Source: Shigella phage phiL
Strand: one strand, 5' to 3'
DNA: 50,002 bases
Sequence record: PP134913
The first letter of the stretch is position 1, and each line of letters starts with the position of its first letter. The position numbers were made by a program, and so were the translations under genes. The notes below the pieces were generated by a model that was not told the origin of the DNA, made no database searches, and saw nothing but the letters and a program-made list of their open reading frames with translations. Shown piece by piece: positions 654 to 50,002 of this stretch.

Positions 654-699
654 CTATAGCAAGATACCCCGATCCTGTTTTAACAATTCGTGCTATTTA
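654..699 (-). promoter_or_regulatory. conserved promoter-like element (motif at about -42, hairpin, TATAGT -10)
   Basis: Gene-strand AATAGCACGAATTGTTAAA, 22 nt, TATAGT, then conserved TACCCCATCAAAACGAG leader. Confidence 0.55.
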
Positions 700-3981: not shown

Positions 3982-4024
3982 TAGCACGAATTGCTAAACG
4001 CCCCGAAGGTGATCGGGGTATAGT
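3980..4024 (+). promoter_or_regulatory. conserved promoter-like element
   Basis: AATAGCACGAATTGCTAAA, 22 nt containing hairpin CCCCGA/TCGGGG, TATAGT. Confidence 0.55.
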
Positions 4025-8169: not shown

Positions 8170-8283
8170 ACAAGGATTGCTCAGTCTATTGCTTACTTCT
8201 ATGAGGGCAAATAACGACAGTGAGCACAATCTTTGCGATCAGGAGGGCGAATTACTCCTCCATGTAAAAAGGCACAAATAAGA

Positions 8284-8307
8284 AAGGAGGCTAAGCCTCC
8301 TTTTTTT
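8284..8307. terminator. intrinsic terminator between converging plus early block and lysis cassette
   Basis: Hairpin GGAGGCTAAGCCTCC followed by 7 T. Confidence 0.65.
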
Positions 8308-8695
8308 CGCCCTTACGAATTGAAAAATAAACCAGCAACAGACCAATGAGAACGAGGGTCCAACCAACTATAGGATCATACCAGTTTCCGGGCTTAGTCA
8401 CAGTGATGCTTTCAGCGTTAACCGTGTTAGCCTTAATGGTTGACACTTCAATTGACTTCTTCACGGAAGAGTCAACCTTTCCTACATTGGACTTTTCAAC
8501 TTTAACATCTCGCTTATCTTCGGATTTTGCGGTTACTCCTGCTAATTGCTTTGTGTTCTCCTCTCCAATCTGTGCTGTAACTTCCGGTTTAGATCCGATT
8601 AAACCGCTCAGGGCAGATGGCATCGAGCAACCGGATAGAGAAATAACACCAACAGCCACTACAATCGCAATGCATGTTTTCTTCAGTTTCATCAT
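8291..8695 (-). CDS. unimolecular spanin (N-terminal lipoprotein signal plus C-terminal TM)
   Basis: Lipobox LSGC at N-terminus, hydrophobic segment [13 protein letters not shown] near C-terminus; last gene of lysis cassette. Confidence 0.65.
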
Positions 8696-9180
8696 AATTC
8701 CTTAACGCAATACGCGTATTCTTCAGCGCGTCTGTTCTTGAGTCCTCTAGACACTTCGCGCTTTTTGGTTTTTGGGTTGTAGTAGTATACCCATCGCCAT
8801 AACTGATTGCACGCTTCCCTGTGCTTACCCTGATTTATTAGCTTAAGCATTGTAGAAGATCCGAACGCGCCAGTACCAACGTTGAAAGTAAAGCTATACA
8901 ATGACGCGCGCATCGTTACAGGAATATCAACATTCACCTTTTTGTCTACGTATCTCTGAGCAACGCCGATGTGTTTTATCAACAAAGCATCGCATTCTCG
9001 CTTAGTGTATTTCTTACCAGGTATGACGTCCGGCCCGGTTATTCCGCTGCATACGGTAGGGACTCCGGCGATATCGTAATAAACCTCGTATTCTACACCT
9101 TCGATTCGTTCCAGTAGGGTAGGCGTCAACGTCAAAGCTGCCCCGATCGATGCGCCTATAACGTTATTTTTTAAACTCAT
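8692..9180 (-). CDS. endolysin, GH24 lysozyme-like, possible signal-anchor-release type
   Basis: E-x8-D-x5-T catalytic triad spacing ([19 protein letters not shown]); Gly/Ala-rich weakly hydrophobic N-terminus. Confidence 0.7.
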
Positions 9181-9422
9181 TATCTCCCCCTGATCTTAAG
9201 CGCCTTATTTAGATCGCCATCGTTTAACGCTTCCTGAATTGCCTTGCTATCGCGATACTTCCAGTACGCTCCCCAAGCGCCAAAAAGCAGAAAGCAAATG
9301 AATGTAGCGCCAGCAATATAAAGTTGACCTGTCGCTGCCCCCACCAACGAAGCACCGCCCGTGCTTGACGTAGCTGCTGTTAAAAATTCTTTCATAATCT
9401 CACCATATATTTTTTTGAACAA
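9180..9422 (-). CDS. holin (80 aa)
   Basis: Small membrane protein with charged C-terminus directly upstream of endolysin. Confidence 0.55.
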
Positions 9423-9514
9423 GTGAGTCGATTTTAACCTTCAAATTTACTTGATACAACGCAAAAAGGCCAGCATGTAAATCATGCCAGCCTGTAAGGT
9501 GATGAATGATATTG

Positions 9515-9691
9515 TTAATCTATCTCAATAAATTCCAGGTAGTAACCATTCAGAGGTGCTTGGATTACTGAGCCTCTACCGTCGTAAATCTCAAACAATC
9601 CCCCACCGAAATCATAACCAACACTATAGATCTGATTTACGCGGAATGGAAGTGTTTTGGAGTCATTTCGGATGCACTTAACTCGTTTCAT
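9515..9691 (-). CDS. small hypothetical protein (58 aa), not in ORF track
   Basis: ATG 9691 after AGAGG; downstream of promoter element 9723..9767. Confidence 0.35.
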   Translation of the reverse strand: MKRVKCIRNDSKTLPFRVNQIYSVGYDFGGGLFEIYDGRGSVIQAPLNGYYLEFIEID

Positions 9692-9722
9692 GATATGTAG
9701 CCTCTTTGTTTTTGATGTGGTT

Positions 9723-9767
9723 ACTATACCCGAATCCCTTCGGGCGTTTTTATCAATTAGTGCGATC
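9723..9767 (-). promoter_or_regulatory. conserved promoter-like element (degenerate motif)
   Basis: TATAGT plus AACCACATCAAAAAC leader; motif GGATCGCACTAATTGATA. Confidence 0.4.
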
Positions 9768-10908
9768 CTGTCATTTCTGGACGGTAGATGAATCGACCTA
9801 TCTCACCAAATTTCTTGTCGTAAACGATTACCGCCGCCTGACGATATGAGCGCCACCCGCCGCGCGCGGCGTATGCATCCTTCGCTCCTAACTGACCGTG
9901 AACCTCATCGATACCTAACGAGTGTTCAGTGATTGTCTGATGATGCCAGTGACCGCTATGAGTATACACATACTTGCTCTCTCCGAAGTCTGCACGGAAG
10001 TCTGCCGCCATCGCTGCAAGTCGCGTGTCTGCCTTTTTCATAGTGTGCCCGTGAGTGTATCCCAATAAGGTGTTTCCCCATCGAGTCTTATGCAGAATCA
10101 TAGGGCTAACGTCAACGAATACTCGCGGCTCGTCTTCATAATATGCCGACATTGCAGCACGTAGCCAAATCATACCGGCCTGGTCGTGGTTCCCTTCAAT
10201 AATCTGAACCTCGACTTCTTTGTGTTTCATAAGCATTTTGTCGATAGCGCGACGCACAGAACGGATCGCAACATGCACCAATTTTGCGTATCGTGAATCC
10301 TGATCCAGAACGTGACCGCTTGCCGGGGTAACAGCATCAAGACCGTCCGAGTGAAGGAAGTCACCGCCAATTAACAGAACAGCCTTCTCTGCGTTAGGGG
10401 CAATATCGATCGCGTAATTGAAGAAGTCGCCAAGCACTTTTTCAGCTACGTCGGTAGAGTAGTTCTCTCCGCATTCATGTTTGTGAGCAAGCGCACCAAT
10501 ATGAAGATCGAATACCGGATAGAGTGCCAGCTTACCAATCGCTGTCGTAAGCCCTTGCGAGGTTAGTAGCTCGGTTGGCTTTGCTCGCGGCAGGTCTTCA
10601 CAGAATGCAATACGCGCCGCTTCCATCATTGCCGCAATCTTCTCACGGTCCTGATCGGTTTTTACCCAGCGCACTACCTCGGTCCCATCGCCGCGAATCA
10701 TCGTCGACGTGCCTTTTACCATGAATCCCTCTGGCACGTTTTTAGCAACATGCTCGTTACCGTGAAAATGACCTTCTTTTGCCAGCTTTGCATGGCGCGC
10801 TTCAACAGTGCGAATGTGCATACCGTATTTTTCCGCGATTTCGCGAAGTGTTAGGCCGCTCATGCGCTCTTCAATAAGTTGCTCGGTGGTGATTTTAGCT
10901 TGTGACAT
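9757..10908 (-). CDS. metallophosphoesterase with N-terminal HTH domain
   Basis: Calcineurin-like motifs DLH, GDFLH, GNHD, GHTH, GHWH; N-terminal LTLREIAEKYG HTH. Confidence 0.65.
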   Translation of the reverse strand: MSQAKITTEQLIEERMSGLTLREIAEKYGMHIRTVEARHAKLAKEGHFHGNEHVAKNVPEGFMVKGTSTMIRGDGTEVVRWVKTDQDREKIAAMMEAARIAFCEDLPRAKPTELLTSQGLTTAIGKLALYPVFDLHIGALAHKHECGENYSTDVAEKVLGDFFNYAIDIAPNAEKAVLLIGGDFLHSDGLDAVTPASGHVLDQDSRYAKLVHVAIRSVRRAIDKMLMKHKEVEVQIIEGNHDQAGMIWLRAAMSAYYEDEPRVFVDVSPMILHKTRWGNTLLGYTHGHTMKKADTRLAAMAADFRADFGESKYVYTHSGHWHHQTITEHSLGIDEVHGQLGAKDAYAARGGWRSYRQAAVIVYDKKFGEIGRFIYRPEMTGSH

Positions 10909-16786: not shown

Positions 16787-16830
16787 GATAGCACAATGAT
16801 AAAATCATTGTTTAGCAATTCGTGCTATTT
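16787..16830 (+). promoter_or_regulatory. motif copy plus half-site and palindrome CAATGAT-AAA-ATCATTG upstream of tail fibre RBS
   Basis: GATAGCAC, CAATGATAAAATCATTG, TTTAGCAATTCGTGCTATTT ending 8 nt before AAGGAG. Confidence 0.45.
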
Positions 16831-21434: not shown

Positions 21435-21665
21435 ATGAAAAAGTTAATCACCATTATCGCTGCGGCAGTCATCCTGACTGGTTGCTCTCAGAATATTAAA
21501 AATGGAGACTGCGTTACTTACTCTTACGGATCTTGCATGATGCGATTCGTTGACGGCAGGAAGATTCCGGCTGGCGAAATCGATATGCGATTCAAAGGTC
21601 TGTCATCCGACGACGATCAGGGTAACTTCAGCGGCAAGGTATCAATCAAAACTAAAGAGTGGTAA
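21435..21665 (+). CDS. small lipoprotein, candidate superinfection-exclusion protein
   Basis: Signal peptide with lipobox LTGC; own sigma70-like promoter 21377..21405. Confidence 0.55.
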   Translation: MKKLITIIAAAVILTGCSQNIKNGDCVTYSYGSCMMRFVDGRKIPAGEIDMRFKGLSSDDDQGNFSGKVSIKTKEW

Positions 21666-26131: not shown

Positions 26132-26150
26132 TGAACCCATTATACAGGCG

Positions 26151-26173
26151 AAAAAAAACCCGCGCAAGGCGGG
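26151..26173 (-). terminator. intrinsic terminator between I-like and J-like genes
   Basis: Hairpin CCCGCGCAAGGCGGG with 8 T on gene strand; identical hairpin at 28332..28346. Confidence 0.6.
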
Positions 26174-26179
26174 TTAATT

Positions 26180-26779
26180 TTAACTCATATCCTCGGCATA
26201 AGAACCTGCTGAGAAAGTTGCGCCACCTCCGGCTCGATATCCATACGGGACCGGGAGAGGGTATCCCGCCGCCGTCGTGTTGACAGCACCGCCGAACGCG
26301 TACGAAGGTTTATTCTTGCTTGATTGAACTTCAAAGTTTGCTCCACCCGGCTGCGGTGAAATCATTTGCATCACGCCGCCCAGCACCATAGCGCCGCCCA
26401 TCATAAACAGAGAAGATGACATTGTTCCCATTAATGCCAGAGACGCACCTCCAGTATAGAACGCAGCAACCATTATTGCTGCACCCAATACAACCTGAAA
26501 TAGACCGCCGGACTTAGAACCAGTCGGGATCGGGACAATCCTTATCTCTTTGGCGCACTTGAATTTTTCCTCTTCATGGTGTCCAACGTTAACGCCGTCA
26601 ACAAATATTGCAAACTTACTTCGAGAGCCAACCTCGCTCTGCATGTATTCTTTAAATCCATCTACCTGACTGGATAGTGCGCGAATGGCTTCCGGGTAAG
26701 ATTCAACAGCAAAGCGGTGAAAGACGCCGAAGCGCCTACCAAGCGAACCTGATAACTTGATTACTTTTACATCATTCAT
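26180..26779 (-). CDS. tail assembly protein (lambda I-like)
   Basis: Position between K-like and J-like; Gly/Ala-rich hydrophobic C-terminal half. Confidence 0.7.
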   Translation of the reverse strand: MNDVKVIKLSGSLGRRFGVFHRFAVESYPEAIRALSSQVDGFKEYMQSEVGSRSKFAIFVDGVNVGHHEEEKFKCAKEIRIVPIPTGSKSGGLFQVVLGAAIMVAAFYTGGASLALMGTMSSSLFMMGGAMVLGGVMQMISPQPGGANFEVQSSKNKPSYAFGGAVNTTAAGYPLPVPYGYRAGGGATFSAGSYAEDMS

Positions 26780-28289: not shown

Positions 28290-28324
28290 TGATTTTTCCT
28301 CTTGTTTACCTGCAACCATTCTAC

Positions 28325-28346
28325 AGCTACAAAAAAACCCGCGCAA
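28325..28346 (-). terminator. intrinsic terminator between M-like and L-like genes
   Basis: Same 15-nt hairpin CCCGCGCAAGGCGGG with 7 T. Confidence 0.6.
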
Positions 28347-28368
28347 GGCGGGATTTTGTTATGTGGCG

Positions 28369-42757: not shown

Positions 42758-42778
42758 TTTAACATTTAGTGCTATTTT
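42758..42778 (-). promoter_or_regulatory. motif copy immediately upstream of TerS RBS
   Basis: Gene-strand AAATAGCACTAAATGTTAAAC then AAAGAGGA RBS. Confidence 0.45.
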
Positions 42779-42793
42779 ACCATATTGCAGGCA

Positions 42794-42816
42794 TAAAAAA
42801 ACCCGCCGAAGCGGGT
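42794..42816 (-). terminator. intrinsic terminator upstream of TerS
   Basis: Hairpin ACCCGCTTCGGCGGGT followed by 7 T. Confidence 0.6.
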
Positions 42817-42825
42817 TAGTATTTA

Positions 42826-46137: not shown

Positions 46138-46182
46138 ATTCTATCAAATACCCTTGAGCAAGTTTTAGCAATTCGTGCTATT
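46138..46182 (-). promoter_or_regulatory. conserved promoter-like element
   Basis: AATAGCACGAATTGCTAAAA ... TAGAAT. Confidence 0.5.
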
Positions 46183-46657: not shown

Positions 46658-46702
46658 ATCATAGCGCATTCCCCTTGATAGGTTTTAGCAATTCGTGCTA
46701 TT
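46658..46702 (-). promoter_or_regulatory. conserved promoter-like element
   Basis: AATAGCACGAATTGCTAAAA ... hairpin GGGGAAT/ATTCCCC with TATGAT. Confidence 0.5.
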
Positions 46703-49470: not shown

Positions 49471-49515
49471 ACTATATCGCAACCCCGGAATTGAGTTTTA
49501 ACAAAAAGTGCTATT
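49471..49515 (-). promoter_or_regulatory. conserved promoter-like element
   Basis: AATAGCACTTTTTGTTAAAA ... TATAGT AACCACATCGACAACGAACGAGGG. Confidence 0.55.
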
Positions 49516-49684
49516 CGCAAGTGATTTCATTTGATGTGATTGGTAGCAATACGTTTCCAACCATCACGAAAGTAGTAACCTGGTTTCCGGTTTCATGGCA
49601 TCTCTCTTTTACCTCTCCGCAGCCGGACACTACCATGATAGCCAGGGCGACCGCCGCCATCATGCAAATCAGAATGCGCATCAT
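49511..49684 (-). CDS. small lipoprotein (57 aa)
   Basis: Signal peptide MMRILICMMAAVALAIMVVSGC with lipobox; GGGAG RBS. Confidence 0.5.
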   Translation of the reverse strand: MMRILICMMAAVALAIMVVSGCGEVKERCHETGNQVTTFVMVGNVLLPITSNEITCE

Positions 49685-50002
49685 TCGAACGCTCCCGCAC
49701 ACAGTAGTAACATGATTACGATCCCAACAATGGCATGACCCATGCAGAAGAACCAGACGGCAGACCATAATGCAATCGTGTTGAAGTTCATTTCAGTACC
49801 TCGATCTTGTTGTCGCCGATTGAGTTTTCTACTACCGATTGCGGGTCATCGCCAGGAACGCGCATGTAGAAATTACTCACCGCCGTGAAGTTCCATTGAC
49901 CGCGCCACTTGAAATAGACTCCGTGTTTTGCGCCCATTGCGTAGTGAGTGGATTTTGCCGGGATCATGTGCCCGTTAACGCGGGTTAGTTGAGTTAGGTT
50001 GC
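49672..50002. repeat. Wrap-around overlap, copy 2 (genome unit length 49,671 bp)
   Basis: Matches 1..331; A at 49798, 49834, 49875 where copy 1 has C. Confidence 0.9.
49788..50002 (-). CDS. partial second copy of 117..344 ORF (runs off window end)
   Basis: Overlap duplicate; carries the three C-to-A differences. Confidence 0.4.
   Translation of the reverse strand, partial: NLTQLTRVNGHMIPAKSTHYAMGAKHGVYFKWRGQWNFTAVSNFYMRVPGDDPQSVVENSIGDNKIEVLK

Follow-up and report, generated by a model that had tools for sequence, protein, structure and literature searches.

Introduction

The product of gene 11 of phage T1 (gp11) is the prototype and defining member of the unimolecular spanins (u-spanins), single proteins that do the work of the two-component pair Rz/Rz1 of phage lambda: with its wild-type lipobox, LSGC, T1 gp11 complements the lambda Rz/Rz1 lysis defect, although no sequence similarity is detectable between the T1-type and lambda spanins (PMC6139136). 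The periplasmic domain of T1 gp11 has been reported to be β-rich. The T1 u-spanin family, as listed in Table 5 of Kongari et al. (2018; PMC6139136), includes phages T1, Shfl1 and pSf-2 together, and u-spanins are found to accompany both signal-anchor-release (SAR) and canonical endolysins (PMC6139136).

The remaining two lysis proteins of T1 have been classified by prediction, gp12 as a SAR endolysin and gp13 as a pinholin (PMC6139136; PMC11447400; PMC13164509). SAR behaviour has been demonstrated for the phage 21 enzyme (R21), whereas for the T1 enzyme it is a prediction only, and for no T1-like phage did the searchable literature yield an experiment on either SAR or pinholin behaviour. Descriptions of the T1 holin differ: its GenBank record gives a single transmembrane domain, and a re-annotation from 2024 gives two segments and assigns the protein to the class II pinholins. 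Here, we compare with these systems a lysis cassette from Shigella phage phiL (sequence record PP134913), located in a stretch of 50,002 nucleotides that was analysed as a whole and is referred to below as the window.

Overall organization and phage identity

Positions 8291..9422 of the window are filled by three tightly packed open reading frames (ORFs) on the minus strand, which encode a holin, an endolysin and a spanin, in that order. The holin stop codon overlaps the endolysin start and the endolysin stop codon overlaps the ATG of the spanin gene (ATGA). The cassette and its surroundings comprise the following features.

8283..8303, both strands: hairpin AAAGGAGGC-TTA-GCCTCCTTT overlapping the stop of the spanin gene and bearing T-runs on both strands (−18.3 and −18.7 kcal/mol, z ~−3)
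8291..8695, minus strand: orthologue of T1 gene 11, with a unimolecular spanin predicted from PHROG 1804, the alignment with T1 gp11, a lipobox and a C-terminal helix
8692..9180, minus strand: endolysin of the GH24 (T4-lysozyme) type, 162 residues, PF00959, orthologue of T1 gene 12, predicted to be an R21-type SAR enzyme
9180..9395, minus strand: holin, 71 residues, identical to T1 gp13, PHROG 2877, predicted class II pinholin
9431..9459, minus strand: weak candidate promoter for the cassette, found by eye (TTGTAT at 9459-9454, a 17-nucleotide spacer, TAAAAT at 9436-9431)
9467..9493, minus strand: hairpin followed by a U-run, resembling an intrinsic terminator (−16.9 kcal/mol, z −3.1), between the DUF7244 gene and the holin gene
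9515..9691, minus strand: DUF7244 protein, 58 residues, orthologue of T1 gp14, a standalone SH3-like domain encoded immediately upstream of the cassette

The cassette DNA is 98.5-98.8% identical to that of pSf-2 and Shfl1, two Shigella phages with RefSeq entries in which this locus is annotated as a holin, an endolysin and an Rz-like spanin, and the remainder of the window aligns lengthwise with Shfl1 and its relatives. At the protein level, the identity to phage T1 is 100% for the holin (gp13), 97% for the endolysin (gp12) and 78% for the spanin (gp11), and the gene order and the convergent terminator are also those of T1. Nucleotide comparison identifies the window as the genome of a T1-like phage (Tunavirus); an earlier sequence-only reading of this DNA had counted the lysis genes as support for a T1-like assignment, and the near-identity to pSf-2 and Shfl1 over the cassette bears this out. 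Searches against the PHROG families returned `Rz-like spanin' (2e-45), `endolysin' (2e-51) and `holin' (3e-38) for the three products, and these three matches indicate that the features described here are not chance patterns.

We consider it very likely that the cassette is the canonical T1-like set of a pinholin, a SAR endolysin and a unimolecular spanin. Both the annotation and the interpretation of the cassette, like the cassette itself, are known already from the RefSeq records of near-identical phages and from the spanin literature. The significance of the cassette lies mostly in correct annotation and in confirming the window as that of a T1-like (Tunavirus) phage.

The spanin

The last gene of the cassette encodes a protein of 134 residues if translation starts at ATG 8695, or of 133 residues if it starts at the adjacent second ATG at 8692. 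The protein can be divided into a signal peptide (residues 1-22), a lipobox (LSGC) with Cys23, a periplasmic domain (residues ~24-107), a helix (residues ~108-126) and a cytoplasmic tail, RKGEKKEA. Both membrane attachments had been proposed by the sequence-only reading, and both are recovered here. The N-terminus fits a PROSITE-style lipobox pattern, and the helix is the sole strongly hydrophobic stretch downstream of the signal peptide (Kyte-Doolittle 2.2 over 19 residues; Hessa-type sum −1.4), with the basic tail next to it. Here and below, Hessa-type sums were calculated with the insertion-energy scale of Hessa et al. (2005). The only cysteines are C8, within the signal peptide, and C23 of the lipobox, and the periplasmic domain has none.

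The conservation of these features was assessed in 37 aligned homologues with 33-99% identity. The lipobox cysteine is invariant and the preceding glycine nearly so; the pattern used recognizes a lipobox in 36 of the 37 sequences, with SIAC in the one remaining. A C-terminal helix with a Kyte-Doolittle value of at least 1.9 is present in 36 of 37, the exception being a sequence that looks frameshifted, and in all 36 helix-bearing sequences the helix is followed by a tail that contains Lys or Arg. Periplasmic cysteines are absent throughout (0 in 37/37). Conserved motifs are carried by the N-terminal two-thirds of the periplasmic domain, and the C-terminal region retains its hydrophobicity rather than its sequence. 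The residue at position +2 after Cys23 is Ser, and Ser or Ala occupies this position in all 37 homologues. Under the sorting rule of the Lol pathway, a lipoprotein that lacks Asp at +2 after the lipidated cysteine goes to the outer membrane, so with Ser at this position the spanin would be sorted there.

A homology search against known unimolecular spanins, which had been put forward as a check on the assignment, places the protein firmly among them. It matches the PHROG 1804 profile, and its alignment with T1 gp11 (8e-77) extends over 133 residues with the 78% identity given above; identity is 99% to the Shfl1 protein and 95% to the pSf-2 protein. The rule used for grouping spanins asks for no less than 40% identity across at least 40% of the length (PMC6139136), and the phiL protein reaches this with members of the T1 u-spanin family. 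Judged by these identities, the allele is of the Shfl1/pSf-2 type and not of the T1 type. The spanin is far more diverged from its T1 counterpart (78%) than are its two cassette neighbours (97-100%).

T1 gp11 and the phiL spanin have in common the LSGC lipobox, Ser at +2, the C-terminal helix with its basic tail and the lack of periplasmic cysteines, and their genes are both the last of the cassette, overlap the endolysin stop codon and are followed by a bidirectional terminator. The 29 substitutions between the two proteins are clustered in the stretch directly behind the lipobox and in the membrane-spanning helix, which in phiL is less hydrophobic than that of T1 (VCWILVFIVLLLFYFLI) and lacks the cysteine found there. 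The start regions also differ, in that phiL has an extra ATG one codon upstream (8695), whereas T1 has only the second ATG. Lambda Rz/Rz1 has the same role and cassette position and likewise bridges the periplasm, with a lipid anchor in the outer membrane at one end and a helix in the inner membrane at the other. The lambda system consists of two polypeptides, whereas the phiL spanin is a single one whose gene holds no embedded or overlapping second ORF, and, unlike lambda Rz/Rz1, the phiL protein has no periplasmic cysteine through which disulfide-linked dimers could form.

That the spanin is unimolecular rather than one half of a two-component pair, as the sequence-only reading had held, agrees with the orthology to T1 gp11 and with a scan of the cassette strand, in which no other lipobox ORF was found between 8100 and 9500, which argues against a hidden Rz1-like gene. 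A hidden two-component spanin was considered and rejected: no lipobox ORF, embedded or overlapping, exists on the cassette strand, and the window has just two further lipoprotein ORFs, a Cor-like one (21435..21665) and one for an uncharacterized early protein (49511..49681), neither of which belongs to a spanin family.

The last gene could instead encode a membrane lipoprotein with no part in lysis, acting for example in superinfection exclusion, with the outer membrane being disrupted by other means. Phages do encode small exclusion lipoproteins, and the Cor-like ORF places a candidate of this kind in the window itself. We regard such a role as extremely improbable for the cassette gene, since its product is an orthologue (78%) of a protein that functionally replaces lambda Rz/Rz1, the ATGA overlap couples translation of the gene to that of the endolysin gene, the gene comes last in the cassette of every relative examined, and the window offers no other spanin candidate, neither of its two further lipobox ORFs matching a spanin family. 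The evidence supports the last gene as the orthologue of T1 gp11 and as a probable unimolecular spanin, complementation being known for T1 gp11.

Structure prediction added little to the description of the periplasmic domain. An AlphaFold2 model of the monomer, built with the 37-sequence alignment, has a mean pLDDT of 54 and only two predicted helices, one at each terminus (the C-terminal one spanning residues 106-128); over most of residues 24-93 the pLDDT is below 50 and no secondary structure is called. A test for β-structure by the period-2 hydrophobic moment gave a value that does not differ significantly from shuffled sequences (p ~0.11), a search of the spanin sequence against solved structures gave no match at E up to 10, and Pfam and NCBIfam contain no model for either the spanin or the holin. 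The allele may be used as natural-variation data on how a single, reportedly β-rich protein fuses two membranes.

The endolysin

The endolysin matches the Pfam family Phage_lysozyme (PF00959; 8.8e-34), and its closest solved relatives are the SAR lysozyme of phage 21 (PDB codes 3HDE and 3HDF; 1.6e-34) and RrrD from the DLP12 prophage of Escherichia coli K-12 (PDB code 4ZPU). The putative catalytic triad, E27/D36/T42, aligns with E35/D44/T50 of RrrD. The assignment to GH24 in the sequence-only reading is thereby secured by both the family match and the conserved triad. The Gly/Ala-rich, weakly hydrophobic N-terminus noted in that reading can be delimited to residues 7-23, a stretch of 17 uncharged residues, nine of which are Gly, Ala, Ser or Thr, with a proline at position 20. 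This segment aligns with the anchor of R21 and RrrD and ends three to four residues before the catalytic Glu27. Cysteines occur at positions 44, 63, 124 and 158 only; since none lies in the anchor segment, the enzyme would belong to the R21 type and not to the disulfide-caging type of P1 Lyz.

The phiL enzyme shares with R21 and RrrD the GH24 fold family, the E-x8-D-x5-T triad and the uncharged Gly/Ala-rich segment in front of the catalytic glutamate. Its N-terminal part is approximately eight residues shorter: two fewer residues are present at the very N-terminus, and the six-residue linker TGPSGN, which in R21/RrrD separates the anchor from the catalytic glutamate, is absent. The enzyme also has a six-residue insertion near the C-terminus relative to R21/RrrD. 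The anchor itself is weaker than that of R21/RrrD and contains a proline, with a Kyte-Doolittle value over 19 residues of 1.13 (2.11 for R21/RrrD) and a Hessa-type sum of +2.7 to +6.8 (+0.15 to +0.8 for RrrD). In eight Drexlerviridae cassettes the corresponding segment is uncharged, 17-18 residues long and rich in Ala, Gly, Ser and Thr, with a drifting sequence, and the segments of the other cassettes are more hydrophobic (Kyte-Doolittle ~2.0) than that of phiL. Such retention of character while the sequence drifts is what one would expect of a membrane segment.

These features bear on the question of whether the enzyme is tethered to the membrane at all. As an anchor the segment is marginal, at 17 residues with Pro20 and an unfavourable insertion sum, and u-spanins pair with canonical as well as with SAR endolysins (PMC6139136); both points would speak for a soluble cytoplasmic enzyme. 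Against a soluble enzyme stand the preservation of an uncharged stretch before the catalytic glutamate in all eight Drexlerviridae cassettes, with greater hydrophobicity in those other than phiL, and the layout shared with the nearest solved homologue, for which SAR behaviour has been demonstrated.

A further alternative would be that the segment serves as a cleavable Sec signal peptide, giving a soluble periplasmic enzyme that is restrained by some means other than tethering. The layout of the N-terminus, MSLK followed by the uncharged stretch and then a polar region, would suit a signal peptide. The proximity of the segment to Glu27 makes this reading very doubtful, because cleavage after it would risk the loss of part of the active site. 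The N-terminal domain is moreover retained in the structure of full-length R21 (PDB code 3HDE; 165 residues), and work by Sun et al. in 2009 is said to have found that this domain stays with the enzyme and refolds to give the active form.

On balance, the assignment of the endolysin as a SAR enzyme of the R21 type is plausible. The SAR character suggested by the sequence-only reading is compatible with the features described above and agrees with the published predictions for T1 gp12; it retains the status of a prediction.

The holin

The holin gene was delimited by comparison with its relatives. The sequence-only reading had taken the upper end of the cassette to be 9422, where an in-frame TTG would open an ORF of 80 residues. 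The holin family profile covers residues 10-80 of this ORF, and in T1 gp13, as in six more relatives, the start is the methionine equivalent to ATG 9395. Together with the behaviour of the TTG frame in the relatives, this defines the holin as 9395..9180, with 71 residues, and the upper coordinate has to be corrected to 9395. A Shine-Dalgarno-like GGTGAG (9404-9399) precedes this ATG. The TTG at 9422 was also considered as the start of a longer, Lys-rich, antiholin-like product and was rejected: no Shine-Dalgarno sequence precedes it, the profile of the family begins at the ATG, in T1 the TTG lies in another frame (an A-run being shorter there by one A), and in the six other relatives stop codons block the frame in four and an in-frame TTG occurs in none.

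The protein contains an uncharged region of 42 residues, which is divided by a turn (TGQ) into a weakly hydrophobic first segment rich in Gly, Ala, Ser and Thr (TMD1, residues ~4-21) and a strongly hydrophobic second segment (TMD2, residues ~25-45); a charged C-terminal tail follows. The Hessa-type sums are +5.0 for residues 4-21 and −0.6 for residues 25-41, and those of EssD, an S21-like pinholin, are +6.5 and +0.2. S21 68/EssD and the phiL holin have the same length (71 residues), a very weak first segment, a single strong helix and a charged C-terminal tail, and for both the next gene downstream is that of a SAR-type endolysin, predicted as such in phiL. They differ in sequence, with no similarity detected between them (BLASTP against EssD gave no alignment at E up to 100), in that the phiL gene has no dual-start (antiholin) motif, and in that the turn between its segments comprises only ~3 residues. 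The phiL holin belongs to a family of its own (PHROG 2877), apart from S21. As far as sequence comparison allows, the holin probably works like a pinholin without being a member of the S21 family, the resemblance being one of function and topology only. The pairing with a pinholin-type holin that the sequence-only reading had anticipated is in line with the weak TMD1 and strong TMD2, which recall EssD, and with the published predictions for T1 gp13; this too stays at the level of prediction.

The main alternative for the first two genes combines a canonical large-hole holin having a single transmembrane helix with the soluble cytoplasmic endolysin discussed above, and would leave the interpretation of the spanin unchanged. 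The holin has only one strongly hydrophobic segment, is described with a `single transmembrane domain' in the T1 record and is not homologous to S21, all of which would accord with a large-hole holin; the Gly/Ala/Ser/Thr-rich first segment, in contrast, mirrors the hydrophobicity of S21 TMD1, and specialists in the field class the cassettes of the T1 family as pinholin plus SAR endolysin. We regard this combination as unlikely. Were it correct, the published pinholin/SAR label would be wrong for Tunavirus, with a cytoplasmic enzyme let out through the large holes of a very small holin having one helix, an outcome to which we attach a similarly low probability. It is suggested chiefly by the Tunavirus endolysin segment, which, with 17 uncharged residues, a proline and an insertion sum ~2.5 kcal/mol worse than that of R21, may not engage the membrane.

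Proposed mechanism of lysis

Spanin function is established for T1 gp11, and for phage 21 the same holds of the SAR and pinholin mechanisms; from these, the steps in phiL can be proposed by analogy, all of them being transferred by homology and sequence features. By analogy with S21 68, the 71-residue holin would accumulate in the inner membrane until a set time, at which TMD1 would exit the bilayer and TMD2 would oligomerize to form small holes, of ~2 nm in pinholins and too narrow for a folded endolysin, collapsing the membrane potential. Homology to R21 suggests that the endolysin would meanwhile have been exported by the Sec system and held inactive in the inner membrane by residues 7-23. 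Depolarization would then free it into the periplasm, where it would refold and cut the glycan strands by means of E27/D36/T42.

The spanin would enter through its lipoprotein signal peptide, be lipidated at Cys23 and processed by signal peptidase II, and then move to the outer membrane. Its C-terminal helix would remain in the inner membrane, so that one polypeptide would thread the peptidoglycan mesh. Once the wall has been degraded, the spanin may collapse or oligomerize and fuse the inner and outer membranes, fusion being the published model, and the virions would be let out.

Flanking elements

The hairpin at 8283..8303 is, by its sequence, a predicted terminator for both the minus-strand lysis cassette and the convergent plus-strand genes, and a terminator is annotated at the equivalent position in T1. 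Upstream of the holin gene, the candidate promoter at 9431..9459 matches the −35 consensus at only three of six positions, and hence the scanning tool made no call there.

The product of the next gene upstream, the DUF7244 protein, has been proposed in a 2026 paper to be an accessory component of the lysis module. The protein has no signal sequence, and the terminator-like hairpin at 9467..9493 separates its gene from the holin gene; a real role for this signal-less SH3-like protein in the timing of lysis seems possible but unlikely. All seven of the relatives examined have a hairpin with a T-run at the equivalent site, although its sequence differs.

Lysis region compared with phage T1

The junction between the endolysin gene and the gene for the unimolecular spanin (8692-8695) reads TTATGATGAAA, with two in-frame ATGs and a stop/start overlap ATGA, whereas the corresponding junction of phage T1 (L002:7579-7584 in the T1 sequence) is CTATAATGAAA, with one ATG and the overlap TAATG. 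The predicted signal peptide of the spanin stays functional with either Met as the start.

Gene upstream of the holin gene
9515-9691, minus strand: standalone DUF7244 SH3-like protein, 58 aa, orthologue of T1 gp14, directly upstream of the holin gene

The DUF7244 protein has been proposed as an auxiliary lysis factor that binds the cell wall (PMC13164509, 2026). Neither a signal peptide nor a hydrophobic segment was found in the 58-residue protein, and a strong terminator (9493-9467) separates its gene from that of the holin, so that a role in binding peptidoglycan in the periplasm does not fit easily with a cassette based on a pinholin. T1 carries an HNH homing endonuclease gene, gp15 (L002:5957-6583), between the DNA-repair exonuclease gene and gp14. 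The window lacks this HNH insertion: its DUF7244 gene comes straight after the exonuclease gene (10908..9757; compared stretch 9692-9757).

Repeated elements

A conserved box of the form TAGCAC-N-AATTG-N-TAAAA, counted across the window with up to three mismatches allowed, occurs in 24 copies against 0.68 expected.

Example sites of the box
678-695, minus strand
3982-3999, plus strand
9748-9765, minus strand
16810-16827, minus strand
46163-46180, minus strand
46683-46700, minus strand

At the roughly 12 sites that fall within longer repeat families, a TATAGT-like hexamer lies about 20 nt downstream of the box, preceded by TG in some copies; the intervening stretch is variable and in some copies forms a hairpin. 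Box and hexamer resemble a family of promoters specific to the phage, in which an operator-like box lies upstream. About 22 nt separate the TTGCTA part from TATAGT, a distance too great for a plain sigma-70 -35/-10 pair. Orientation relative to flanking genes was read at the 9748-9765 copy only, which lies just upstream of the DUF7244 gene preceding the lysis cassette.

The terminator-like element AAAAAAACCCGCGCAAGGCGGGTT is present three times with conserved flanks.

Copies of the terminator-like repeat (family D4)
26132-26182
28311-28361
42775-42825

Ends of the window and other predicted small lipoproteins

Positions 1-300 and 49672-49971 form direct repeats, 99% identical, one at each end. 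The window therefore contains a single complete genome of the T1-like type, about 49.67 kb long, with about 330 bp repeated. Either terminal redundancy or an overlap from assembly or circular permutation may explain this end repeat.

Two other small proteins are predicted lipoproteins; the first also matches phrog_1119 'Cor' weakly.

Other small predicted lipoproteins
21435-21665, plus strand: Cor-like superinfection-exclusion candidate, 76 aa, lipobox LTGC, phrog_4281
49511-49681, minus strand: 56 aa, lipobox VSGC, phrog_8628
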